From a virus (Duplodnaviria; Caudoviricetes): 32,058 nucleotides of DNA. Each line of letters starts with the position of its first letter. Within the stretch, counting starts at the first letter, position 1. The position numbers were made by a program, and so were the translations under genes. Below the pieces are notes generated by a model. That model had not been told where the DNA came from. It saw only the letters and a list, made by a program, of their open reading frames with translations, and did no database searches. The DNA lies in the IMG/VR virus record IMGVR_UViG_3300022895_000020, positions 1 to 32,058 of that record. One strand, 5' to 3'. Positions 6,695-25,256 of the stretch are shown here, one piece after another.

Positions 6695-9348
6695 TATAAA
6701 TGTCCTCCCTCTGCTGCTGTCGATAGAATCTCATCCGTTAGGTCATTTAACATACCATTCATCCGATCAAAGTCAGTCTCTGTTTTTAAGGTATTGTTAT
6801 TGGTAAGGTCAATCTTAAGCTCTGCGAGAGTAAACCGGTTAATAACCTCCTGCTCTGCCGCATCACGCATATATTTAATCTCTTCATCCAATGCGTCCAT
6901 AGTATCCGCCATGCGTGCCGTGTTGCCGGCAGTCTTCCCTGTGTTACCAGCTGTATCATTTAAGGCTGATGACATCCATGGATCGATTCCTGCTTCACCG
7001 GCACCTCCGTTAGCGCCTGTGCCTGCAAAAAACCCCTTTAGCTTGGCTTCTTTTTTTGCTCCCCATTCATAAGCCGATGATGCGGCATCGGTATAGCTAA
7101 TAAAATCTCTCTGGGCAACGATCTCTTTCCATCCTGATGCATCCTTCGCTTCCCTGGAAGCTGCTTTTATCTGATTTTGGAACCCATCAAGTCCAGCTGT
7201 GATATTTACCTCTACTCCCGGGATCTTGTTGATTACATTTTCTATTGCGTGAGCCATATTTGTAATATATCCTACTACCGTAGTTGCCAAGTCGTAGAAT
7301 AAAATTTTTACCGACGCTATGGGATCATTCCACACATTGTAAAAGAAATTAATAAAACTGGCAATCACGTTCCAGATGAAAATAAAATTATTCTGGATAT
7401 GTGCCGCTAAAACTCCAAATACCGCTGCTATAACACCGGTGGCGCTAACCGAGGTTCCGGCAAACTTATTTAAGGCACCTATTCCCATATAAATGACTGC
7501 AATTAAAGCAATAATAGCAAGCATGATCCAAGTGAGGGGGCAGGCAAGTAAGGCAGCATTAAATGCCAACTGGGATGTTGTCATTCCCGCAGTGGCTGCC
7601 ATCTCTGCGGTAATTGCGGCTCCATGTGCCGCTGAACTGATAGTACTTGCAGCTTTTATAGCATTGCTGATTCCTTGAACTATATTATTAATGGTAAGCG
7701 CTGCAGTATAAAACCCCACAGCAAACGCTACCCCTAAAATAACAGGAGAAATTATAGACCAGTTGTCTGCTATAAACCCGCCAACCGCGCCCATAACATC
7801 ATAGATCCCCATTGCCGTTCCCACAACAAAATCCATTGAATTTGCAATTGAGTTAAGAGCTTCTTCTACCTTTTTTCCAAAACCGATTACCATTTCCATC
7901 GTACTGGGTAAACCATGTGAAGCTAAGGCTGAATCAGTTTCGGTTATTATACTAACCCAACCTCTTGTGATTGCAGCGCGCATATTTGCAAAGGTTGTAG
8001 CCCATGTGTTGCCTGCCTCCTTAGCTGCTCCAGCTGATATCCCAGAATCCAATGCCTCAGATACCACGCTGATAAAGTTAGCAGCTGATATAGTGCCTTT
8101 ACTTAGATCTTTTTTTACGGCACCAACTGACTTGTTAACTGCCTGAGCATAAATTTCAGCAGCTCCTATGCCCGCATCAAAAAGACGATCCAACTGATCT
8201 GCTTCTACCTTGCCCTTACTGTACATTTTACCAATGGCATCTACTACGCTTTGTAGTTGTTCATTTGTACCTTCGCCGTAAAAGGAAACCGCATCAGCCC
8301 AAACACGTACCTGATTGGTTGCCGCACCAAGAGACATGCCTCTTGTTTGGAATCCCTGTGCAGATTTGCTCGCAACGTCAAGACCATACGCAGTGCCAAG
8401 GGTAGCGTCTTTTAACTGTTCTAATGCTGCCTTTGCTGCGTTGGAATCGCCTGTCAAAACAGTGATTGTTTTTTGAAAGCGGTTCATTGTATCAATTCGA
8501 TTAAACGCACCGCTTGTATTCATAACCCCGAGACTTCCAAGCGTGCTTTTAATCAGCCCAATGGTTTGATTAGCAACAATAATTCCTTTCTGCCAGCCTT
8601 TAAACCCTTCTGAAACCTGCGCTACATAACCATTACATTGATTGACCGCACTGTTAAAACGGCCCTGTTCGCTTGTGTTATCACGAATGTTCCGCTCTAC
8701 CTGCCCCATGATCGAATCAAGTTTCTGGTATGCCGTATTGGCCTCACTGATATCCATTCGCCCCATTGCCTGATTCAATGATTCCTGGACCGTTACCACA
8801 GAGCCAAGCTTTCCGCGAAGAGATTCCAGTTCATTATTAACCTGATCCGTTCTTAAATTCACCGGTATGTTATTGAGCTCCTGAACCCTTAAGGATAATG
8901 CCTGCACCCGGTTTTCCATAGAAGCCATATCATTTAGCATTCCTAATGGCGTCACTCTCATGCTCCTGGCCTGGTCAGATATGGCCTTCTGGCTTTCATA
9001 TAGCTGCCTTGCCATCTGATCGGCTGCTTGGTACTCCGCCTGAAAACGATCGGCACCAGAGTTCATGAAAACGCCTAATGCTGCTGTGCTATTCCAAGCT
9101 GGTTCTGGAGGGGTGGGAGGCGGAGTGGTTGCGACTCTTTCCACCTCTTCCCGATACCTGGCCATTTCAGCCGATGCTTCTGCGATTCCCTGCCTTGCCG
9201 CATCTATGGAAGCAGCATTTAGTCCTGCATCAGACGCCGCCTGTGCCTGCTCAAAGGTAGAGAGCATAATAGACATTGATTGTGTGATGTTGTTTAATAT
9301 CCCTGACATTCGATCCTGCAGTTGAATTGAAGTTTGTAATCCTGCCAC
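6694..9348 (-). CDS. Tail tape measure protein
   Basis: 884 aa Ala/Gly-rich helical protein with a hydrophobic region (NAALLACPLTWI); between chaperone and LysM genes. Confidence 0.92.
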   Translation of the reverse strand: MAGLQTSIQLQDRMSGILNNITQSMSIMLSTFEQAQAASDAGLNAASIDAARQGIAEASAEMARYREEVERVATTPPPTPPEPAWNSTAALGVFMNSGADRFQAEYQAADQMARQLYESQKAISDQARSMRVTPLGMLNDMASMENRVQALSLRVQELNNIPVNLRTDQVNNELESLRGKLGSVVTVQESLNQAMGRMDISEANTAYQKLDSIMGQVERNIRDNTSEQGRFNSAVNQCNGYVAQVSEGFKGWQKGIIVANQTIGLIKSTLGSLGVMNTSGAFNRIDTMNRFQKTITVLTGDSNAAKAALEQLKDATLGTAYGLDVASKSAQGFQTRGMSLGAATNQVRVWADAVSFYGEGTNEQLQSVVDAIGKMYSKGKVEADQLDRLFDAGIGAAEIYAQAVNKSVGAVKKDLSKGTISAANFISVVSEALDSGISAGAAKEAGNTWATTFANMRAAITRGWVSIITETDSALASHGLPSTMEMVIGFGKKVEEALNSIANSMDFVVGTAMGIYDVMGAVGGFIADNWSIISPVILGVAFAVGFYTAALTINNIVQGISNAIKAASTISSAAHGAAITAEMAATAGMTTSQLAFNAALLACPLTWIMLAIIALIAVIYMGIGALNKFAGTSVSATGVIAAVFGVLAAHIQNNFIFIWNVIASFINFFYNVWNDPIASVKILFYDLATTVVGYITNMAHAIENVINKIPGVEVNITAGLDGFQNQIKAASREAKDASGWKEIVAQRDFISYTDAASSAYEWGAKKEAKLKGFFAGTGANGGAGEAGIDPWMSSALNDTAGNTGKTAGNTARMADTMDALDEEIKYMRDAAEQEVINRFTLAELKIDLTNNNTLKTETDFDRMNGMLNDLTDEILSTAAEGGHL

Positions 9349-9354
9349 TTCTTC

Positions 9355-9534
9355 CTACCCCCTTTTCCTTCTGGCCCTGGCGGCATCCTTCTTGTCGTTT
9401 TTAATCTTCATCTCGACCGCTGCAATGACAACAGCTTTCTCATAACGAGGAAGCCCCAAGTACTCATGGGGCCACTTGTGAAGCTTGTGGAGGCAATAGT
9501 AAGCGATGTTTGCTTCCAAATCGCCTCCTTCCAT
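9355..9534 (-). CDS. Tail assembly chaperone C-terminal (-1 frame, gpT-like) segment, 59 aa; not in ORF track
   Basis: MEGGDLEANIAYYCLHKLHKWPHEYLGLPRYEKAVVIAAVEMKIK...; in the -1 frame relative to the XkdN-like ORF, behind the A AAA AAC heptamer. Confidence 0.8.
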   Translation of the reverse strand: MEGGDLEANIAYYCLHKLHKWPHEYLGLPRYEKAVVIAAVEMKIKNDKKDAARARRKRG

Positions 9535-9962
9535 TAGTTTTTTGCTTCTTCCACCAGATCTTCCAGTGCAATATCAAAGCCGTTCACTTCCTGTACCTTA
9601 GATAAATACTCCCGATACTCTCCCGGCGTAAGCATCTTTTTAAGCAAGGCCTCTGCTCCCATTACCTGATAGGAATCCTGAAGCTCCTTGTTGTTAAGAT
9701 CGGGAAACACCGTACAAGCCACAGCCAGTCTGCCAACATACTGATCATAGTCTGTTTCCGGCATGTAGGCTCCCTTTTTCCCAGGGATCGGCCTCCGCTT
9801 TGTACATTCCTTTTTAATCAGCTCATCCTGCTCCGAAGTGATGCACTTGACTTCCCATTCCACCGGCTTCTTATCTTTATCCATAAATCTCTTAGACGCT
9901 GCATACTTCACATTCTCCACGGTCACAGCATTCTGACTTAAAAAACAACTTAAATCTCCCAT
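9534..9962 (-). CDS. xkdN: Tail assembly chaperone, XkdN-like
   Basis: PDLNNKELQDSY.VMGAE.LL..ML.PGEY, VQEVNGF, EEAKN C-terminus. Confidence 0.9.
   Translation of the reverse strand: MGDLSCFLSQNAVTVENVKYAASKRFMDKDKKPVEWEVKCITSEQDELIKKECTKRRPIPGKKGAYMPETDYDQYVGRLAVACTVFPDLNNKELQDSYQVMGAEALLKKMLTPGEYREYLSKVQEVNGFDIALEDLVEEAKN
9537..9543 (-). other. Programmed -1 ribosomal frameshift heptamer A AAA AAC
   Basis: GCA AAA AAC TAA at the end of the chaperone ORF fits X XXY YYZ, with an open -1 frame to 9355. Confidence 0.8.
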
Positions 9963-11977: not shown

Positions 11978-12391
11978 TCATTTTACTGTAATATTATCCA
12001 TAGCCTCTTCAGTTTTGCCGGTCCGCAGCCCGAACCGGTCGTAATTTACAAAGAAGGACAATACTCCATCTCTTGATACTCCGCTTCGTCTTGTTCCCCG
12101 CATCAGAGAGCCATCAGCCAGAGAAAGATATTCCATGGATTCCATTAATATTTCAAGAACTCGGTTCAACTCCCTTGCAGGCTGCTCCATCTCTTCAGGC
12201 ATATATTGGACATACATTCCTGTACTACGGAAATACCGTTGACCAAGAAGAGCTTTTTCAGATGGTTCCAAAAATCCCACAAAAAAACAGGGCTCTATTA
12301 GTCCCTGGTCTACTTTACTGGTATAGACGGTGGTTTCCGGAAAGAGAGTGTCAAGCTTTCTGGTCACCGCGTCCATGATGTCGTTATACAT
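11978..12391 (-). CDS. Putative tail terminator/completion protein
   Basis: QGLIEPCFF and DGVLSFFVNY motifs; position between the HK97-gp10-like gene and the sheath. Confidence 0.75.
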   Translation of the reverse strand: MYNDIMDAVTRKLDTLFPETTVYTSKVDQGLIEPCFFVGFLEPSEKALLGQRYFRSTGMYVQYMPEEMEQPARELNRVLEILMESMEYLSLADGSLMRGTRRSGVSRDGVLSFFVNYDRFGLRTGKTEEAMDNITVK

Positions 12392-12920
12392 GAAATGCCC
12401 CCTTTAAATAATCGGATATTTTTTTCTCGATCATCTTAGGAGCTTGTTCTTCCAGCTCCCGCTCTGATATAGTCAACATGAACTGGCCAGGCACCCAGCC
12501 TTTATGATTAGCGGTTCTATGTCCATATTCCACGTAGGAGGCATATTCCGTGGGGTTGACAATTTCAATGGAATAGCCCTCATCGGTTTTCACCACCTCA
12601 CCAGCTGTCCATCCGGCACGAAGTACACCACCTTGCTTACCAGTTTTCGGCGTGAATGTAATGGTTTTAGGGTTTTTCGTAACAAAATCAACCTCTTTAC
12701 CACTTTTCGTTGTGAAATGAACCTTTTTCCCTGCAGGCGTAGTAAATGTAACAGGCTTATCATATTGGCCCACAGGAGTTCTCTTCTTAACCTTCGCCAG
12801 TAAACGTGCCGCCAGATACTTAGCGCAGTCCTCGCATAATTTATCCCTGTCTTTATCAAGTTGCTCAATCTGATTTTGAAACTGTCTGATCTCTTTAAAA
12901 TCAAACTTTCCTCCAGACAT
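12384..12920 (-). CDS. HK97 gp10-like neck/tail completion protein
   Basis: KRTPVG, G.LRAGW, NPTEYASYVEYGHRT, G.FML motifs; start re-placed at ATG 12920 (GAAGGAG RBS). Confidence 0.85.
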   Translation of the reverse strand: MSGGKFDFKEIRQFQNQIEQLDKDRDKLCEDCAKYLAARLLAKVKKRTPVGQYDKPVTFTTPAGKKVHFTTKSGKEVDFVTKNPKTITFTPKTGKQGGVLRAGWTAGEVVKTDEGYSIEIVNPTEYASYVEYGHRTANHKGWVPGQFMLTISERELEEQAPKMIEKKISDYLKGAFHV

Positions 12921-13315
12921 TATGCTTTCTCCTTCCACAGTTCCAGGACAATTTCCTGATGGCTGCCATATACTGCCGGCTGGCCGCTTCTGGAATAGAA
13001 CTCGGTACGGCCAGCCTGAGTGACTTCTATTTTGCTTCCGGGCAACACCACGATTTCCGGAGCAAGAAATAGCTTGATCACTTGTCGGAGCTTGGAAACT
13101 GTGCCTACATCGTCAGTAGATGAGATACTTGAAAAAGAAAGATGGCAGGACCGATCTTCCACCACCTTCTTCATCTTCTGGCTGGTCACTTTTGTATCCG
13201 GATCCTTATACGGCTGCTTTTCATAGATATTACAGGTCCCGTCATAAGTAGATTCAATAACCTTCCGGTGTATCTTTCTGGCCTGTTTCATTGCATCAGA
13301 AATCATTTTTATCAC
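12920..13315 (-). CDS. Head-tail adaptor/head closure protein
   Basis: KLFLAPE..V.PGSKIEVT...YGSHQEI motif; synteny. Confidence 0.75.
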   Translation of the reverse strand: MIKMISDAMKQARKIHRKVIESTYDGTCNIYEKQPYKDPDTKVTSQKMKKVVEDRSCHLSFSSISSTDDVGTVSKLRQVIKLFLAPEIVVLPGSKIEVTQAGRTEFYSRSGQPAVYGSHQEIVLELWKEKA

Positions 13316-13647
13316 CCGGTCTTTCGATATCGATTCAGCTGCACCTTGTAGTTTTTTAAGATACTTTCCTGTAAGGCACTGGCCGCACTGGTAAAGCTGG
13401 TTTTGGTATCCCCTTCCGATATAGAAGTGACTGTAACCGGAACTTCTCCTTCTCCCAGCCCTTCATGCCTGTATAAATCTATCGCCATGCGGTAGCAGGT
13501 ATTTACAAGCCCTTCTGGTACGTTTTTGATATGGCAGTAGTTCCTTACCGTTTCTTCCACGTCCTCCATGATAAATGTAAGCTGGGGATCCTGGGAGACA
13601 TCTTCCTTGGATATCCCCAGTAATTCTTTTAATCTTCCCAGTTCCAT
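13312..13647 (-). CDS. Head-tail connector protein (gp6/gp15-like)
   Basis: VRNYCHI..VPEGL, SISEGDT..SF, QLNRYRK; start MELGRL at 13647 after AAGGAGG. Confidence 0.85.
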   Translation of the reverse strand: MELGRLKELLGISKEDVSQDPQLTFIMEDVEETVRNYCHIKNVPEGLVNTCYRMAIDLYRHEGLGEGEVPVTVTSISEGDTKTSFTSAASALQESILKNYKVQLNRYRKTG

Positions 13648-13657
13648 AGAATCCTCC

Positions 13658-14677
13658 TTATGAAATGGTAGCAACAAATACCTGATCGGCATAAGGGAAG
13701 GAAGGCAGCGCCGTAGCCACGGCCTTGATCCACTTGGCCACTGGATCAATGGTATTGTACTGGCAGACAATTATCTTCCCAACCTCGGAAATTTCAACAT
13801 CAGAGTTCCTTCTAAGTTCTAATTCCTCTGCAGTTACTCCGTAGAAGGTATCTCCCATCTTACCCTCGGGCATCATGACAAAAGCATTTTCAGGAAGGAA
13901 ACGTTTTGCACTGTATTTTCCTTTTGTATCCTGAATACGGTACTTTTTATCGTAAATAGCAATCTGAGGAAGCTTCTGCTGGGCAAGGAATGCATTAAGC
14001 TCTGCCACAGTCAAAAGCTTGGAACTGTTTACACCAAACACAGCCGCCCGGATCCTTTCATCACGCAAGATGGCGCTTAAGTTCTTCTTGGAAGTCAATG
14101 CTCTAACGGGAGTAAATCCGGTATCATCCACAATGGTTTCCACCATCTCTTCCATGTCTTCCAGGATTGTAGGACTTCCGGAAAGCCAGGTCTTGCTTGT
14201 TTTATGTTCTGCCGGCATTCCGTAATCAATGGAGGCTTTGACCCCATTTTCATTAATCACAATCTTACCAGTGGAAAGGGCCTCCATTCTCATGCACTCT
14301 ACACGAGTACGGACAGAAGCAACCAGATTATCTACATCACGGAAAATATTCTTAATCATATCCTCCTCTTCCCTGTCATTTCTAGGACTTTCCAGGGCGA
14401 TGATAGTTTTCTCCGGAATCTTGATTTTCTTCTTAATCAGAGCCAGATCCTGAGTGAATACTTCAGCACCTTCTCTGGACCCGATCTCGGCCTCAGTATC
14501 AAAGGCATGGACCTTTGCGGATACAGGTAAGTTGCTGGCACCCTTTACCATGTCAATTTCCAGCGCTTCCTTTTTGTCTTCCGGGAATAAATATTCCCCC
14601 ATATAGGGTTCCTGAGCGCGCTCCTTTGTGTAATCAATTAAATCTCTTGGTGTTAATAATTCTTCTACTCTGGCCAT
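13658..14677 (-). CDS. Major capsid protein (phage capsid E-like family)
   Basis: RVECMRMEALSTG, IDYG.P, KAVATALPSF motifs; start MARVEE at 14677 after AAGGAGG. Confidence 0.92.
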   Translation of the reverse strand: MARVEELLTPRDLIDYTKERAQEPYMGEYLFPEDKKEALEIDMVKGASNLPVSAKVHAFDTEAEIGSREGAEVFTQDLALIKKKIKIPEKTIIALESPRNDREEEDMIKNIFRDVDNLVASVRTRVECMRMEALSTGKIVINENGVKASIDYGMPAEHKTSKTWLSGSPTILEDMEEMVETIVDDTGFTPVRALTSKKNLSAILRDERIRAAVFGVNSSKLLTVAELNAFLAQQKLPQIAIYDKKYRIQDTKGKYSAKRFLPENAFVMMPEGKMGDTFYGVTAEELELRRNSDVEISEVGKIIVCQYNTIDPVAKWIKAVATALPSFPYADQVFVATIS

Positions 14678-14678
14678 A

Positions 14679-15089
14679 TTAGTCCTCCTTAATCTGTAAC
14701 TGTCCATCAATAAAAAATTTGATAAACGGCATTTTTACAATGAGCTGCTGTACGGCTTCCTCGATATAATCCCCCTGAAGGCGTTCAGCATTAACGGATC
14801 CATCAATCATCAATGCCCCCGGCTGCTGACCATGTGTTACCTCCACGGTGTCAAAAAGGATCCCGGCAGGTGCTGCTGACAAAGCATAAGTATAGGAACC
14901 GGAAGAGCCGCTCCTTGTCACCTTCACCGCTTTTCCGTCTTTGTCCAGAAGTGTACCAGCTGATACAAACTTCTTTCCATACTCATCAGCTGTTACGCCG
15001 GTATCGTTTACCGTGCAGCTGATGTTTTGGTACTTTTCACTTTTCAAAAATTCTGGGGTGTTCCCAAAGGTCTTCTTTGATAAAAACAT
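14679..15089 (-). CDS. Head decoration/cement protein
   Basis: GKK.V.AGT, GILF..V.VT.G...GA....G.V...RL; between the scaffold and capsid genes. Confidence 0.75.
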   Translation of the reverse strand: MFLSKKTFGNTPEFLKSEKYQNISCTVNDTGVTADEYGKKFVSAGTLLDKDGKAVKVTRSGSSGSYTYALSAAPAGILFDTVEVTHGQQPGALMIDGSVNAERLQGDYIEEAVQQLIVKMPFIKFFIDGQLQIKED

Positions 15090-15114
15090 TTTATTACCTC
15101 ACTTTCATTTTTTA

Positions 15115-15732
15115 TTAGCCCCATGCCTTGGCATAAGGATTTTCTGCTGCTTCAGCAGTCTTATTTAAGGTCTCTGCAATTCCCTTCCCGAAACCATTTT
15201 CGTTGGTACTACCAGCTCTGGGTTTGTAGCCTCCTGTACCTGATTCTTTTCCAGTACATCCTTTGCCCGGATCGGATTCTTTAAACAGAAATGCTTTGGA
15301 TTCCTTTATGGTCTTGATCTGCTCCTCCAGGCCAGATATCTTGCCATCATCGGCCAGTATCAGCTTTGTTTTATCCACAAGTCCGGTGACAATATCAACA
15401 TCATGGGCAGAACCGGCGAGAGCTACCTTAATAGCTGTGGAAAGCTTCAGTTCTTTCATGTCTGCCTCATTTTTCTCCTTAGCGGCTTTATTTTCTGCCT
15501 GCAGGGTTTCAATCGTCTTTTGCAGTTCTGCATTGTTTCCACTGTTCTTTTTCAAGGTTTCCAGCTGTTTATCGCGGTCCTTGATATCATTTTCCAGTTG
15601 TCCTTTCTCCTGATTAGCGGCATCATAATCTGCCTTCGGAACATAGGACTCCAGCTCCTTTTTAGAAGCTTCTGCCGCCTTTGCGGCTTGCTCCTCACTG
15701 ATTCCAAGTGCAATGAATTCTTCTTTTTTCAT
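15115..15732 (-). CDS. Capsid scaffolding protein (Gp20 minor structural family)
   Basis: MKKEEF..LG.SEEQ, KDRDKQLE.LK, GLEEQI..IKESK.FLF; start re-placed at 15732 (AAAGGA RBS). Confidence 0.9.
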   Translation of the reverse strand: MKKEEFIALGISEEQAAKAAEASKKELESYVPKADYDAANQEKGQLENDIKDRDKQLETLKKNSGNNAELQKTIETLQAENKAAKEKNEADMKELKLSTAIKVALAGSAHDVDIVTGLVDKTKLILADDGKISGLEEQIKTIKESKAFLFKESDPGKGCTGKESGTGGYKPRAGSTNENGFGKGIAETLNKTAEAAENPYAKAWG

Positions 15733-15843
15733 GATCTCATCCTTTCCATGCAATAAAATAACGCCCAGGAAGTCCTGCGCGCTTGATAGCTGTAAGGCAG
15801 CTTCACCCCGCCACCCGGAGGGAGATAATTGGATCACCTCCTA
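15733..15843 (-). promoter_or_regulatory. Structured leader upstream of the scaffold gene (hairpins, terminator-like end)
   Basis: GGAGGTGA/TTATCTCC stem and a CGCGCAGG-ACTT-CCTGGGCG stem followed by TTATTTTATT. Confidence 0.5.
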
Positions 15844-16116
15844 TTATTCTGCTAGTTCATAAGTAGCTTCGAAGATATCAGGCTTGCAAGGATAAAGTTC
15901 TCCTTTTACGCCCTTGATGATGTAGTTACCAACAGAAGCAGCCATTGTCCCCTCCAATGTTTTAATGCAACACTGAACATCAGGACACCCGATATTCCCA
16001 AATAATACCTCTCCTTTTTTAATGGCTTCCACAATCCATACCGGATCCTCTTCCTGATCGGGTCCTCCTGTCCACTTAAAAGCCTCAATTACCACGGGTT
16101 TCTTTCGATATTTCAT
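15844..16116 (-). CDS. Conserved small phage protein, candidate Acb4-like nucleotide sponge
   Basis: KYRKKPVVIEA...TLEG.M.A..G.YIIKGVKGELYPCKPDIFE.TYE; strong GGAGGG RBS; family assignment from memory only. Confidence 0.55.
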   Translation of the reverse strand: MKYRKKPVVIEAFKWTGGPDQEEDPVWIVEAIKKGEVLFGNIGCPDVQCCIKTLEGTMAASVGNYIIKGVKGELYPCKPDIFEATYELAE

Positions 16117-16131
16117 TCCATTCTCCCTCCT

Positions 16132-16147
16132 GTTGCGATATCACAAC
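16132..16147. promoter_or_regulatory. 16-bp near-perfect palindrome GTTGCGATATCACAAC
   Basis: 7 of 8 symmetric pairs match; directly upstream of the RBS of 15844..16116. Confidence 0.5.
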
Positions 16148-16160
16148 TTTTGAATATAAG

Positions 16161-16194
16161 AATACCACCGGCCTTTTTACTGACTGGTGGTATT
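16161..16194 (-). terminator. Stem-loop directly after the immunity-like gene
   Basis: AATACCACCAGTC-AGTAAAAA-GGCCGGTGGTATT followed by a weak T-rich tail (CTTATATT). Confidence 0.55.
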
Positions 16195-16399
16195 ATGACC
16201 TTGCTATTCTCAAGGCCTCCTCTTCACTGACTACTTCGTAGCAATCAAACTCTGGCGCATCTGGATAAAAATATCCCAAAGACAGGCCTCGTCTTCTCCA
16301 TTCCCCGTTTTTATAGTCAAAAAACTTGCGGCCCTCCTGTTTGATTATCGTTCCCCGATTGTCATAATCGGTCAATTTTAGATATCTTACATTATCCAT
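16193..16399 (-). CDS. Putative immunity protein for the MuF toxin (IapK-like position)
   Basis: 68 aa, overlaps the toxin ORF end by 8 nt, acidic/aromatic C-terminus YEVVSEEEA; polymorphic-toxin operon layout. Confidence 0.7.
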   Translation of the reverse strand: MDNVRYLKLTDYDNRGTIIKQEGRKFFDYKNGEWRRRGLSLGYFYPDAPEFDCYEVVSEEEALRIARS

Positions 16400-17054
16400 A
16401 ATTCTTCACCTTTTCAATGTCATTCGGTACTGCCATGGAGTCCGATAGTTCAAACATCTCATCATCTAACTCCATATACTCTTTGCTACTCATATCCTTA
16501 ATCAGGCGCTGCTTTTCATACAACTCATGCATTTTCCCATTTTTCACTTCAAAACTTTCGGAAGTATGATATTGAAGCTCAAAGGCCTGCCCGCTTGGGG
16601 CCCTTAAAGTCGTATTGATACCATTGTATGGGTTTAGTTTATCTGGCCAATAATTTTTAATCTCAACTGTATTATATCCTAACTGTTTATGCTTATCAAT
16701 AGCAGCTATCGTTTTATCAGCAAGTGACTCCGGTGTACCTGTGTATGTATACCGCAAAATGTCCTTAACTTCGTATTCATTGCCCAATGGGTCGTATTTT
16801 CTTCGTATTTTTGTAAGATAAGAGTCCTTTGACTTAACTCGATATTGAAGACCTGACGCACTCATCTTCAATTGCTCTGCAACCTGCTTGACATGTGCGG
16901 TTATATCCGGCTCATTTTCAAGGGCCTGATTATAATATGTCATCCCTCTGCTCTGAGCTTTTAAAATACCGTATTCTAACTTATCCGTGTATTTTATGTT
17001 CTGGAACTCATTAAAGCAGCAGGTACTTCTTTCCCAAGAGTTTCTTTGTACTTT
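16392..17054 (-). CDS. RelA/SpoT-fold (Apk2/Tas1-like alarmone synthetase) toxin domain, out of frame with upstream MuF
   Basis: YRVKSKDS...KIRRK, DILRYT, KNYW, YNGIN, FELQYHT motifs; frame is open from 17054, well upstream of the track ATG at 16943. Confidence 0.82.
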   Translation of the reverse strand, partial: KVQRNSWERSTCCFNEFQNIKYTDKLEYGILKAQSRGMTYYNQALENEPDITAHVKQVAEQLKMSASGLQYRVKSKDSYLTKIRRKYDPLGNEYEVKDILRYTYTGTPESLADKTIAAIDKHKQLGYNTVEIKNYWPDKLNPYNGINTTLRAPSGQAFELQYHTSESFEVKNGKMHELYEKQRLIKDMSSKEYMELDDEMFELSDSMAVPNDIEKVKNYG

Positions 17055-18184
17055 TCATACTGGGTTCTGTCAGACGCTTTATTCTTATGCATCTTCTCCA
17101 GTAAGACCGCCTGAGGGTCATTCTCCACAAACTCCTCATGCCATTGCTTATAAGTCATGCTGGCCGGCACTTCCATAGATTTGCCTGTAACTGGATCTCT
17201 GGCTGCTCGCATTTCTGCAACTGAAAACTCATCGTCAAAATAAGGAACTGTTGTTGTCCTACAACGCGGATGAAATGGGGGCGCGGTAACTCCGACTTCA
17301 TATTCTGACATATAATAAAATGGTTCTTTTTCGCTTCTCCCCTTACCGTCCATATTCCGGCATATCTCCGAAGTATGGGAATCCAACGTAACCAGGTTTT
17401 CATATCGATCCACACCGAGCTCCTTATAACAATCCTTCTGAGCTGTGGAGGCTATGGCCGCTGATTCCGTCATGATTAAGTTTCCCGCCTGACTTCGGCT
17501 TACGTCCATCACCTGCGCAAGGTTCCGAATCGCCTTCTTCGGATCAGATCCACGGATTATGCTCTGAGAAAGCTCTGTATGCAACTTAGTAACCAACTTC
17601 TCTTTGTTAGTCCATATACGTTCTGAGAAGCTGGATCCGTCCTGTGCCCATGGCTTACGAATGACCGTGTCTATTATCTTAGGGTCCAAGCGTGTCAGAT
17701 TACTCCCCACTCCTGTTCCCCTGGCTATTTCAAAGGCGGTATGGTAATAATTTTCTGTATATGCATTATGGAGAAACCCAATCGTGCCACCCTCATAAGT
17801 TGAATATAGAAGTTCAGCGTGCTGCCTGATCTGCAGTTTCATAGCCTCAAGCCTGGAAATATGGTATTTAGCAGAAGCATTTTCTAATTCTTTTAACCAG
17901 CGCTGATCAACAGCATTCTCTTTTCCGGCTTTTATGTACTGCTGAACGGTCCATTTAAATTCATCCAGTTCACTGGCCTTAAGCATTTTCTTGGCCTTGG
18001 CATAGCTTACTCCGTTATTATCCGCCAGTCGATTATACCAGCGTTCAATATCCATCTGCAGAAGCTTAGATGCTTCATCAAACTGTTTTTCCAGATCCCG
18101 GTAGTATGCCACACTTCGGCTGTACTGCTCATCTTCAAGTGCTGCCATTCGTTCTTTCCAGTAAGAACTATTCTTCTTCGCCAT
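16994..18184 (-). CDS. MuF / SPP1 gp7-like minor head protein (toxin carrier N-terminal part)
   Basis: FSERIW, TLD..TS.ICR.MDG, APPFHPRCRTTTVPYF, VPASMTY.QW motifs; directly after the portal gene. Confidence 0.92.
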   Translation of the reverse strand: MAKKNSSYWKERMAALEDEQYSRSVAYYRDLEKQFDEASKLLQMDIERWYNRLADNNGVSYAKAKKMLKASELDEFKWTVQQYIKAGKENAVDQRWLKELENASAKYHISRLEAMKLQIRQHAELLYSTYEGGTIGFLHNAYTENYYHTAFEIARGTGVGSNLTRLDPKIIDTVIRKPWAQDGSSFSERIWTNKEKLVTKLHTELSQSIIRGSDPKKAIRNLAQVMDVSRSQAGNLIMTESAAIASTAQKDCYKELGVDRYENLVTLDSHTSEICRNMDGKGRSEKEPFYYMSEYEVGVTAPPFHPRCRTTTVPYFDDEFSVAEMRAARDPVTGKSMEVPASMTYKQWHEEFVENDPQAVLLEKMHKNKASDRTQYEKYKETLGKEVPAALMSSRT

Positions 18185-19607
18185 CTATTTCACCGCCTTG
18201 GTCTCCCTCTGTCTGCTTTTGAAACGCCCTTCGGTATTCGTCTGCTTCCTCTGCGGCCTTTATTTTCTCTTTTTCCAGCTGTTTTTCTTCTTCATCAGCA
18301 TTTTCCACAAACGGATGGTTTTTAAGGATCGTCTTATTGGAAACCAGACCTACACTCTTCTCACATATATCAGCAAGTTCAGAATCACTCCTTATTGCGG
18401 ACCGGGTCCAGGTCTGAATGATCTGACCGCATTGAGCACCGAGGTACTTACAAATAGCACGAACCAATCGTCCAAATCCCAATTTGAACTCTGTTTCCAT
18501 AAGACCGGCTTTTAACTCTAAAAGGGAATATAAATATTTCAGTGCTACCCCCGATGCATTACCGAACTTCTGCGGATCCGGATCCACGCCCTGACCTTGC
18601 TCAAATATCGCCTTCCTGGTCATTTCCAGGAATTTCTCCCTAGCCTCAATCGGGATACTGATTGTCAGGGTCTCCACACCTGTTTTATTGCTATCGTCCC
18701 CATCATCATCAAGCTTGATCATCTTATACTTTTTAAGATCGTCAATGAACTCCTTTTTATCTTCGCCGCCATAATTGGTAAGAATAAATATCACTTCCTG
18801 GATATCCTCCAGATCATTCAAAAAGCCGGTGAATACCTTGTCATAGGCATCTACCAGCGGTTTAATGTTCACCAGGTCATTGGTTGATATATTATTGTTG
18901 TTAAAAGAGATAAAGGGAACCTCACCCCAGCCATGATTAAAGATATTTCCTTTTTCAGCAGCTCCATCTTCTGGAAGCCCCGGAAAAACATTGTATTCAG
19001 AAAGACCAGCAGTGGAAATGGCGCTGCTTGTACGGTAATAACTGTAGCATCTTTCATTATCCCAGTATTCCCAGATGGTGATTTCCTTGCCTGATGCAAA
19101 ATCTATATCTTTATAAGTCCTTAACACAGCTATCAACGCTCGATCCAAATCGCTGCAGTAAATGGGAATGATCTGTTCCGAATCTACAACACCATAGCAG
19201 AAGTTTCCACTTTCATCTTTCCAATAATGGATCCAGGCACATTCGTGATTAGAGGCGTTAACACATAGATCCTTACATATCTTTGGGTAAGAATCTCCCA
19301 ATAAATCTGCAATCCGTTTATTCACTTCCTCTTTACCAATATCAAACAGCGGAGGCGCTGCAAACATATAGGCCGCCTTTTGATTTACCAGAAGGCCGTG
19401 AAAGTTACGAGGGATTCGATTATCAGCACTTCGGAGTGGCCCGGAATCCTGTCCCCTTACTCCACGTTTCAATATATCGTTTTCGTTCCTATAATACCGA
19501 TCGGCCTCCTGGCAGCGCTTCACATGCTGCCTGTGCCAGCTGGCCCGGTTCTTAATTAGTTCTTTTACCACTTCAATGTTGGGCTTTTCGTCATTCACTC
19601 TTCTCAC
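18168..19607 (-). CDS. Portal protein, SPP1 family
   Basis: ADNRI..NFH.LLV.QK..Y, HGWG.VPFI.F.NN, LVDAYD, GNASGVALK motifs; true start may be GTG 19598. Confidence 0.95.
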   Translation of the reverse strand: MRRVNDEKPNIEVVKELIKNRASWHRQHVKRCQEADRYYRNENDILKRGVRGQDSGPLRSADNRIPRNFHGLLVNQKAAYMFAAPPLFDIGKEEVNKRIADLLGDSYPKICKDLCVNASNHECAWIHYWKDESGNFCYGVVDSEQIIPIYCSDLDRALIAVLRTYKDIDFASGKEITIWEYWDNERCYSYYRTSSAISTAGLSEYNVFPGLPEDGAAEKGNIFNHGWGEVPFISFNNNNISTNDLVNIKPLVDAYDKVFTGFLNDLEDIQEVIFILTNYGGEDKKEFIDDLKKYKMIKLDDDGDDSNKTGVETLTISIPIEAREKFLEMTRKAIFEQGQGVDPDPQKFGNASGVALKYLYSLLELKAGLMETEFKLGFGRLVRAICKYLGAQCGQIIQTWTRSAIRSDSELADICEKSVGLVSNKTILKNHPFVENADEEEKQLEKEKIKAAEEADEYRRAFQKQTEGDQGGEIDGEEE

Positions 19608-19612
19608 CTGCC

Positions 19613-21013
19613 TTATTTAAAGATTGATATTCCTGATTTCTTACCACAGTTTTCTGCAATTCCCGTTGTGGCATCTGGGGCGTCATCATGCTTATTCTGG
19701 CCTTCTCTCTGGTACCGGTTCATGGCATTATAATATTCCGGCCAGCGGTTTTTCCAATCCTTTGGGTAATAAATGTGCTGCATGACCCATGAGGAATTGG
19801 AGTAGATCCTGGCTTGCTTATTTTTACTTTGATGGAACCATTTGATCGTTGTGTGATTGCTATCATATTTCTCCTGAAGGATCCGTTCTACGTTACGGGC
19901 AAAACTGCGGCCGCCGTTATTTGACTCTATCTTGGAAACGTCCACGCCATCTTCATAAAGCATTTTTGCCGTTGCCGGCTCCGTTACCTCCATAGGCTCT
20001 TTGGTATAAAGAACGTCAAGGACGTAAGCCTCATTGGCAAAGGTAACTCCATAATCGATACTGCAAAGATAATCTTCGCCGGTATCAGCCGTATCGGTGT
20101 AATTCCGGATCTCTTTAAACTCCGGTAACTCTCCACTATAGGTTTTAAAGCTGCTATACAGTTTTCCTTTCAGGTCAATCGGTTCCTGCTGGTAGTTAGC
20201 AGATGCAATATCTGCGCCCATGGCTTTTATTTTAGCCTGATAGGATTTGTAAGATAATACCTCTGGGCAAAGCATCTCATGTGTTTCAGGATTCAACAAG
20301 GCCTTCATGCAGATGTGTCGAACCTTAGCGCCTGCCTCCTTGAAATGCTCCAATGCCCGGCCTGCCAAATCGTCGCTGGCCCATCTGGTCATGATGATAA
20401 TAATTTTACCGCCCTCTTCTAGACGGGATAACATAGTATCGGTAAACCAGGACCAGTGCTTTTCCTTGGTTAGCTCATTGTTGGCTTCCTCCGCATTTTT
20501 GATCAAGTCGTCTATGATCAGAAGGGACGCTCCAAAGCCTGTGGCCGTTCCAGTGGGTGAAGTGGCCAGATAGTTATTGTATCCCCCTTCCAAGCTCCAA
20601 AGGTTCATAGCTCCATCACCCTGTTTAATGCATACACCTGGGAATATATCAGTAAACACAACCTTGCCCTGATCTGCCTTTAATTCCTGGATATCATTAC
20701 GGACGTTTTTGGAAAACATAGTGGAAAGCGTTTCATTGTAAGATCCGGTCATAATCTTTTGTGATTGATCATTCCCCAGTACCCACTCCACCAAAAGGCC
20801 TGCTGTTCGACTTTTTCCATGACGAGGTGGTTCATTAACGATCATAACTTCATCGTCTGATTGCATAAAGTCCTGGAAGCCATTACAGAGCTCTATCAGG
20901 TACTTACGGTCCTCTTTGTAGAAGTCCGGCGCTTTCAGATTGCAATAAAAAAAGAACTCACGCCTAGCAAGTTCTATCTTTGCCCCTCTGATTATTGTCT
21001 CTCTATCCACCAT
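19613..21013 (-). CDS. terL: Terminase large subunit
   Basis: Walker A PPRHGKS, Walker B LLIIDD, MTRW, YQQEP, HDDAPDA nuclease motif. Confidence 0.96.
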   Translation of the reverse strand: MVDRETIIRGAKIELARREFFFYCNLKAPDFYKEDRKYLIELCNGFQDFMQSDDEVMIVNEPPRHGKSRTAGLLVEWVLGNDQSQKIMTGSYNETLSTMFSKNVRNDIQELKADQGKVVFTDIFPGVCIKQGDGAMNLWSLEGGYNNYLATSPTGTATGFGASLLIIDDLIKNAEEANNELTKEKHWSWFTDTMLSRLEEGGKIIIIMTRWASDDLAGRALEHFKEAGAKVRHICMKALLNPETHEMLCPEVLSYKSYQAKIKAMGADIASANYQQEPIDLKGKLYSSFKTYSGELPEFKEIRNYTDTADTGEDYLCSIDYGVTFANEAYVLDVLYTKEPMEVTEPATAKMLYEDGVDVSKIESNNGGRSFARNVERILQEKYDSNHTTIKWFHQSKNKQARIYSNSSWVMQHIYYPKDWKNRWPEYYNAMNRYQREGQNKHDDAPDATTGIAENCGKKSGISIFK

Positions 21014-24380: not shown

Positions 24381-25256
24381 ATGAAAAACATTGTAAAATT
24401 TTTAGTAGTTTACGTAACATATTTAATAGTATTTATTCTTGTGAACGGTATGATGCCATACTCACAGGCGTTCATGGAAGCTAGCGCTCGTACAACGGCG
24501 GGGCCTCTGGATTTACTGTATGTAGCGATTAGCTGCCTGTGGTTTAGCTCTACCATCTGCTATACTGTATCCCATACAAAGTGGAAAGGCGCAAAACTAG
24601 CCCTCGGCGTAATCGCCATGATTAGCCTGGTTCATCCGGTTTTGACTCAGATTGAAACATTGTTCTTTGGGAGTGCGTTTGCCATCATTTCCAAAAGCGA
24701 TATTCTGTTGATTATGCTGGCAAATATTTTACCGCTTTTAGCATCCGTTCCATTGGCAGTTAAAATGTGGAGCAAAGGAAAATCGAACGAATCCGTTTCT
24801 GTTTCCCCTATCGATATGAAGAAGCTCTTGATAAGCATCTCGATGGTCGGGATCGCCTATATGATTATATACTTTGTTTTCGGTTATTTTATCGCGTGGA
24901 AATCTGAAGCCGTGCGGATATTTTACTCCGGCACTTCGCATGACATAGGCTTTTGGGCTAAGCTTAGAGAAAACTGGAGAGAGAATCCGGCCATCTACCC
25001 ATTCCAATTTATGAGAGGAGTCCTGTTTGGGGGAGCCGCTTCGCTACTGCTATTTATGGGTTGGAGTCGTCGGGGAGACTTCATCATTAATATCTGCCTG
25101 ATTTATCTGTGTACAGCTGTTGTACTCATTATTCCAAACTTTCTTTTCCCTGATGCGGTCAGATGGGCGCATTTTATTGAAATGTTTTTGTCTATGCTGC
25201 TTTTCGGAATGATGACAGGATTGATAATGACCCACGACCCTTTAAGGAAATACTAA
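24381..25256 (+). CDS. Multi-pass integral membrane protein (moron, opposite strand)
   Basis: 291 aa with about 8 hydrophobic segments; AGGGGG RBS; own promoter. Confidence 0.85.
   Translation: MKNIVKFLVVYVTYLIVFILVNGMMPYSQAFMEASARTTAGPLDLLYVAISCLWFSSTICYTVSHTKWKGAKLALGVIAMISLVHPVLTQIETLFFGSAFAIISKSDILLIMLANILPLLASVPLAVKMWSKGKSNESVSVSPIDMKKLLISISMVGIAYMIIYFVFGYFIAWKSEAVRIFYSGTSHDIGFWAKLRENWRENPAIYPFQFMRGVLFGGAASLLLFMGWSRRGDFIINICLIYLCTAVVLIIPNFLFPDAVRWAHFIEMFLSMLLFGMMTGLIMTHDPLRKY

Follow-up and report, generated by a model that had tools for sequence, protein, structure and literature searches.

This locus raises the question of why a phage carries, behind the gene of its MuF minor head protein, an alarmone-synthetase toxin domain that lies out of frame with it, and what becomes of the two parts. 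The window, by which we mean the whole stretch of 32,058 nucleotides analysed, is a linear virus record of 32 kb that is derived from a metagenome and is 70% complete. Its minus-strand late genes, identified by a Pfam scan, encode terminase, an SPP1-type portal, MuF, scaffold, capsid, sheath, tube, tape measure and baseplate, a set that indicates a contractile-tailed phage. The nearest prophages were found in genomes G003 and G011 (87-93% DNA identity), which belong to the same genus as G001, the genome behind locus L023 (Lacrimispora sinapis), and from this we infer that the host is Lacrimispora. The MuF gene sits between portal and scaffold (Table 1). Compared with G004 over the head/neck module (12032-15843 and 16124-20221, approximately 7.9 kb), the lesion described below is the sole in-gene frame-breaking indel, so the phage does not look decayed. 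No drug-resistance families were found among the 36 window ORFs scanned. A 291-aa ORF on the opposite strand (24381-25256, +), a possible moron, had no Pfam, PHROG or PADLOC match.

Table 1. Features of the MuF locus and of its surroundings in the window
Feature	Position	Strand	Basis
SPP1 gp6-like portal gene, upstream in head module	18168..19607	-	PF05133, E 6e-116
MuF (SPP1 gp7-like) minor head protein ORF, 396 aa	16994..18184	-	PF04233, E 4e-13; TIGR01641
A_AAG tetramer in the MuF frame, also in in-frame relatives	17051..17054	-	
T_TTA tetramer, put into the MuF frame by the lesion	17012..17015	-	
Weak AU-rich hairpin, starts 15 nt after T_TTA	16961..16996	-	
Linker and Apk2-type alarmone-synthetase domain, -1 frame, 220 codons	16392..17054	-	SaEAS/Tas1 matches
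Predicted immunity gene, 68 aa, IapK/Tis1-like position, intact	16193..16399	-	Own SD, homologues after toxin
90-aa phage ORF, function not assigned	15844..16116	-	phrog_419
Capsid scaffold gene, closes module	15115..15837	-	PF06810, E 1e-43

An earlier, sequence-only reading of this DNA had described a MuF ORF and a toxin domain split by a single -1 frameshift, and this layout was confirmed. The MuF ORF ends ...LGKEVPAALMSSRT*, and the -1 frame, which opens after a TGA at 17057-17055 and closes with a stop at 16394-16392, contains all of the motifs RVKS, DILRYT, KNYW, YNGIN and ELQYHT. Repair of the frame had been expected to yield a fusion of about 597 aa with a restored linker; the in-frame relatives are exactly 597 aa long and show EVPA[S/T]FNEFQNIKY at the linker. 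A clean 1-nt deletion had also been proposed. The net change of -1 is correct, but the single-base part is not, since DNA alignment placed the lesion at 17018 (-) in the MuF-toxin linker, outside any homopolymer, where two bases of the in-frame relatives are replaced by one. Residues 1-391 of the MuF ORF match the in-frame relatives L003 and L004 at 97-98% identity, and the last five residues are out of frame. MuF and toxin share one frame in L003, L004, X3 and X7/X8 and are separated in the window. The window therefore does not hold an intact Apk2: its allele of this Apk2-type gene is broken at 17018. The toxin part itself differs from that of L003 at 2 positions in 621 nt and encodes an identical protein.

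The identification of the domain as a MuF-Apk2-type toxin, made earlier from its motifs, is right. The toxin frame matched SaEAS (8VX3) with E 6e-10 by sequence and E 8e-20 by profile, and by profile it also matched Tas1 (6OX6; E 2e-5). A pneumococcal phage MuF, behind which lie a small gene and then an HD_4 gene, has a C-terminal domain that shares 37% identity with it. All motifs of the synthetase domain are intact, and its AlphaFold model is confident (pLDDT 91). Synthetases of (p)ppApp are distinguished by RYT, GxN and YH from (p)ppGpp synthetases and RSH enzymes, which have AVR, SxH and IR (PMC12226406); the window domain has DILRYT, YNGIN and ELQYHT. Profile databases gave little: Pfam had no match at E<=0.001 for the toxin frame and none for the immunity ORF, PADLOC had no match, and NCBIfam returned only sub-cut-off matches to the C-terminal part of XopAD. 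The homology of the synthetase domain to SaEAS and Tas1/Apk1 is evident by both sequence and profile; those enzymes, however, are Sec-exported or T6SS-delivered and are not linked to MuF.

A 68-aa ORF (16399-16193), which the earlier reading had missed, overlaps the toxin stop and has a Shine-Dalgarno (SD) score of -8.5 kcal/mol. Its homologues come after the toxin at many loci, and it aligned with the gene that follows MuF in phiARI0462, the iapK position (hhalign probability 86%, E 4.6e-6). Based on position and homology, we predict that it is the immunity gene. With regard to the (p)ppApp hydrolase gene aph1, there was no HD_4 match in the window, a 70% complete record; aph1 is variably present and is regarded as optional (PMC10083569). 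The 90-aa ORF was considered as an Aph1-type hydrolase and rejected, because HD_4 matched nowhere in the window.

By domain, signature, position and partner gene, we assign the gene on sequence grounds to the Apk2 MuF polymorphic toxins, which are described from prophages of S. pneumoniae (SPNA45), B. caccae, M. haemolytica and P. multocida (PMC12226406, PMC10083569). As in those systems, a MuF N-terminus lies in the head module, the C-terminal synthetase carries RYT, GxN and YH, a small putative immunity gene follows, and the domain identity of 37% to the pneumococcal phage protein comes with the same layout. The window differs in that the toxin is out of frame in the linker, in that its 70% complete record has no aph1 gene, and in that the carrier is a contractile-tailed phage of a presumed Lacrimispora host.

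The locus is one of active polymorphism. In close MuF relatives (76-97%; L007, L017, L033-L039, L135-L139), the C-terminal domain and the immunity gene behind this linker are exchanged for others, among them a second Apk2 variant whose immunity gene is of another type. At L115:2183-3055 and L116:1948-2814 the synthetase domain has a different N-terminus of about 100 aa, which we take to be DUF2513-like, and lies downstream of a separate long MuF gene; in the sister loci L118 and L119 it is MuF-fused. Another MuF-Apk2 gene, L184:949-2554 (G008), is frameshifted near the toxin C-terminus in an apparent decayed prophage.

The lesion is not confined to the window. A second viral record (L002) has the same lesion and is 100% identical over 3861 nt, and it was found in Logan contigs of four studies: X1, X2 (depth 29), X4 (depth 13.5) and X6 (depth 5, the broken contig being 88 nt long). 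The comparison covered X1-X8, that is 8 of the 24 runs listed, all as contigs, and left out X9-X24 (RNA runs among them; 0.22-0.34 of words). The contigs of X5 do not cover the break, and those of X7 and X8 are identical, look like one data set and were counted once. Also left out of the counts were L028, which equals the window in length, and P0046, a predicted protein of 183 aa whose contig measures 1.6 kb and which may owe its length to the contig edge rather than to a second break. X1 and X4 are possible sources of the window, whereas X2 (study P2, 2021) and X6 (P5, 2024) are not so flagged. In-frame alleles were found in X3, X7/X8 and a second contig of X6, so that X6 assembles both alleles. 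Over 16236-18300, only the lesion and one SNP separate the window from X3, a run of the study that also includes X2. X4 has two silent SNPs common to in-frame relatives, while the in-frame X3 has the window's letters at these positions. This points to a lesion on two SNP backgrounds, through recombination or a repeated event, although a mixed metagenome contig could mimic the pattern. Runs with the lesion allele date from 2018 to 2024, and contigs of JGI, Logan and ENA all have entries for the 396-aa MuF protein.

Taken together, these observations make it likely that the window carries an inherited, polymorphic frameshift allele of a MuF-Apk2 gene, which probably disarms the phage and leaves the head protein and the immunity gene working. 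A disarming mutation was among the options of the earlier reading, and it is supported by the in-frame twins, by the recurrence of the same lesion across records, by the length of natural short MuFs, by the SD scores and by the lack of any other in-gene frame break against G004. We predict that ribosomes translate MuF residues 1-391 and stop five codons past the lesion. The 396-aa product would then contain everything that natural short MuFs have, and would still be packaged via the portal. The window MuF extends beyond its closest natural short counterparts, L140 and L141 (347 aa, 67% identity), whose ends fall near its residue 353, and because the product spans them it probably still works as a minor head protein. 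SPP1 gp7, which lacks a toxin domain, binds the portal and supports infection (PMC10083569, PMC6316719). Similar to these proteins, the window product covers the full span of natural short MuFs of 340-347 aa, the closest at 67% identity; it differs in its recent frameshift origin, in about 40 extra linker residues, and in the complete toxin frame and immunity gene behind it.

Because the synthetase frame lacks an SD-led start and its slip sites are weak, we predict almost no expression from it. The immunity gene, with an SD of its own, would still be made, and lysogens would stay protected against armed sister phages. Several observations count against disarming. The toxin DNA is undecayed (2 of 621 nt from L003), which fits a recent lesion and would also fit continued use; the allele's occurrence in runs from 2018 to 2024, on two SNP backgrounds, is a broader spread than a gene that died only recently might achieve; and a -1 slip at T_TTA would yield a full-length product. 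The allele could have spread by drift or by selection. By itself, the frameshift is an ordinary mutation, a polymorphic knockout and a useful natural control.

That the host is already immune through a chromosomal immunity gene, which would make the phage toxin useless, was also considered. About 20 genomes of the genus have a gene 69-79% identical to the window immunity gene. This idea was not supported for the nearest hosts, as G003 and G011 have no immunity gene beside the chromosomal synthetase and G011 has no match at all.

The alternative that survives best, although we judge it improbable, is that the break frees the synthetase: re-initiation or a start at ATG 16943 would give a 183-aa toxin, the length of the ORF from this codon, that forms a toxin-antitoxin pair with the immunity protein in the lysogen and acts in addiction or abortive defence. 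The ATG lies 50 nt past the MuF stop, and its Met, the point where the catalytic domain begins, is unchanged in all 20 of the domains aligned. The host genus also has toxin-immunity cassettes free of MuF, including an island in G039 with a TGA just before the same Met, as well as a genus-wide chromosomal copy under purifying selection. Further, weak ribosome-binding sites sufficed for the toxicity of Apk2tox in E. coli (PMC12226406). However, ATG 16943 has no usable SD, as the sequence-only reading had noted: its score is -2.5 kcal/mol, compared with -7.8 to -13.1 in 11 of 12 other late genes. A good SD precedes the same Met in just 1 of the 42 in-frame genes, whereas 39 of the 547 other internal Mets have one, and these scores lower the case for a conserved internal start. 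The window allele lacks the independent toxin start expected of a toxSAS-type pair, since no good SD precedes this Met here or in 41 of 42 in-frame genes. In addition, the chromosomal copies start further upstream, with a conserved SD scoring about -6 in 12 of 12, and PADLOC gave no match.

Less probable still is functional low-level -1 frameshifting at T_TTA or A_AAG, which would give mostly short MuF and a few armed copies in a selected ratio; we consider this very unlikely. The lesion does put T_TTA in frame, a slip there would give a product of native length, and the allele persists across studies. A purine-rich SD-like run (judged by eye) ends 10 nt upstream of T_TTA, and a weak hairpin lies downstream (z about -2). 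The hairpin (-9.2 to -13.5 kcal/mol in windows of 62-82 nt, z -2.1 to -2.4) is not convincing as a frameshift stimulator, and the SD-like run is nearly the same in in-frame relatives; since these flanking signals are common to in-frame relatives, they probably did not evolve for slippage. Nor is the split conserved. The earlier reading had itself named in-frame close homologues as the finding that speaks against programming, and its proposal fails that test because the close homologues are in frame, including L003 and L004, which at 98% DNA identity to the window are single 597-aa fusions. In the MuF cluster of 22 members, 13 of the 15 listed are full length and 2 end in the window allele's tail. 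Of 243 viral toxin loci the best 80 were compared: the frame is closed and at least 483 aa long in 71, a contig edge truncates 6, the N-terminus is a different one in 2, and L052 (the same as L002) is the only one split at the linker.

The signals at the break itself are also poor. The overlap has no X_XXZ_ZZN heptamer, as had been observed before, and offers the two tetramers only; such tetramers occur at 20 of the 396 MuF codons. In E. coli, bare tetramers gave 0.147% frameshifting against 0.112% without a motif, and U_UUA reached no more than 1.8-3.6 times background when the IS3 pseudoknot was present (PMC4066793). At 2-3 copies of MuF in each head, our own arithmetic gives less than 1% of virions armed. 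What a real site looks like can be seen in the tail assembly chaperone gene of the same phage, a candidate for G/GT-type programmed frameshifting: it has A_AAA_AAC just 5′ of its stop (9537-9543, -; heptamer at 9543), an open -1 frame (9348-9534, -) and a hairpin of -19 kcal/mol, and the heptamer is unchanged in G005 (86% identity). The MuF locus resembles tail-chaperone frameshifts (lambda G/GT, SPP1 17.5/17.5*; PMC6316719) in having overlapping frames offset by -1 and a short and a possible long product, but in those systems both the heptamer and the split are conserved, and the MuF site has neither.

A sequencing or assembly error, the remaining option of the earlier reading, retains almost no probability as far as contigs can tell, for although the window is a metagenome-derived record and L002, X1 and X4 are possibly not independent of it, the identical non-homopolymer lesion is present in X2 (another study, 2021, depth 29) and X6 (2024), X6 assembles both alleles side by side, and the 396-aa protein comes from JGI, Logan and ENA contigs alike.

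Beyond the probably disarmed allele, our analyses also revealed relatives of the toxin domain in the host genus. A toxin profile search of the genus gave matches in 46 of 49 species genomes, and 42 of the 49 carry it as a frame of about 210-280 codons without MuF. In a sample of the family, the profile matched 5 of 301 genomes, G003 included. No MuF match was found in the 38 stretches checked, some of which come from the same genome; the same MarR gene is present in 31 of them, and ABC-transporter genes then follow in the longer stretches. The synthetase copies are chromosomal in the loci examined, and databases label their proteins hypothetical. Our analysis covered 31 copies, taken from 30 of these 42 genomes (loci L020, L022, L023, L158-L167, L169-L182 and L187-L197, in the genus of G003).

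All four motifs are kept in 30 of the 31 chromosomal copies. Median pairwise dN/dS is 0.136 (range 0.02-0.25) over 78 pairs with 0.03<dS<1, pairs that are not independent of one another; for the phage toxins the value is 0.094 over 23 pairs. In a midpoint-rooted tree, the chromosomal copies form one side of a branch (99/95) inside the MuF-fused phage toxins and share a clade with the window toxin (96/97). The 12 chromosomal starts examined have a common SD scoring about -6, and remnants resembling the MuF linker were recognized by eye 5′ of several copies. An immunity-like gene follows 14 of the 31 copies, a fused fragment follows 1, and there is none nearby in 16; dN/dS is 0.11 with the immunity gene versus 0.14 without it. 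Similar to toxSAS modules (FaRel, PhRel and CapRel, named in PMC12691689), the Lacrimispora copies look like stand-alone synthetases with a small partner gene in 14 of 31. They differ in being MuF-Apk2 derived and mostly beside one MarR-ABC locus, and in that 16 of 31 have no partner gene nearby and nevertheless show a low dN/dS.

Other arrangements were also observed. At L193:5642-6424 (G043), the chromosomal synthetase continues in frame into the C-terminal part of the immunity protein, and similar frames of 247-265 codons occur in G013, G023, G024, G025 and G033. L185:5300-5989 (G018) and L186:6321-6938 (G035) hold a MuF-free second Apk2 subtype with the same two neighbour genes, and are probably mobile-element remnants. 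G039 (L183:8783-9533) has an orphan toxin-immunity cassette without MuF, 78% and 95% identical to the window pair, with a TGA just 5′ of the conserved Met; it lies in an island with a serine recombinase between pieces of feoB. This cassette and the chromosomal clade together indicate that detachment at the linker has happened more than once, though nothing shows that the window allele is on the way to a detached state.

With this in mind, we offer a broader reading only tentatively, and hold it to be possible rather than probable. Toxin tails may detach repeatedly at the linker, and one such copy may have been domesticated by Lacrimispora as a genus-wide (p)ppApp-type synthetase that stayed constrained after the immunity gene was lost in about half of the sampled lineages. 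A phage weapon would thereby have become a host signalling or defence enzyme, and the window allele would be a snapshot of the first step.

In the literature searched, no report of a frameshifted MuF-Apk2 allele or of the Lacrimispora synthetase was found; the supplementary Apk homologue lists of PMC10083569 and PMC12691689 could include Lacrimispora proteins. The word frameshift is absent from the main text of PMC5576092, PMC11699363 and PMC10083569, and Lacrimispora is absent from the text of PMC12691689.

What MuF toxins do for the phage is considered an open question (discussion of PMC10083569; report in PMC12254948). Near-isogenic armed and probably disarmed alleles exist in nature, as in X3, where the lesion and one SNP are the only differences from the window in 2 kb, and in X6, which has both, and such a pair allows a direct test of toxin packaging, injection and usefulness. 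The genus-wide synthetase is the weightier finding, since a (p)ppApp-type domain known as a killing toxin is kept there without MuF and often without an immunity gene. If the Lacrimispora synthetase is active, this would suggest that (p)ppApp has a physiological role other than as a toxin product, or that the host acquired a defence from a phage.
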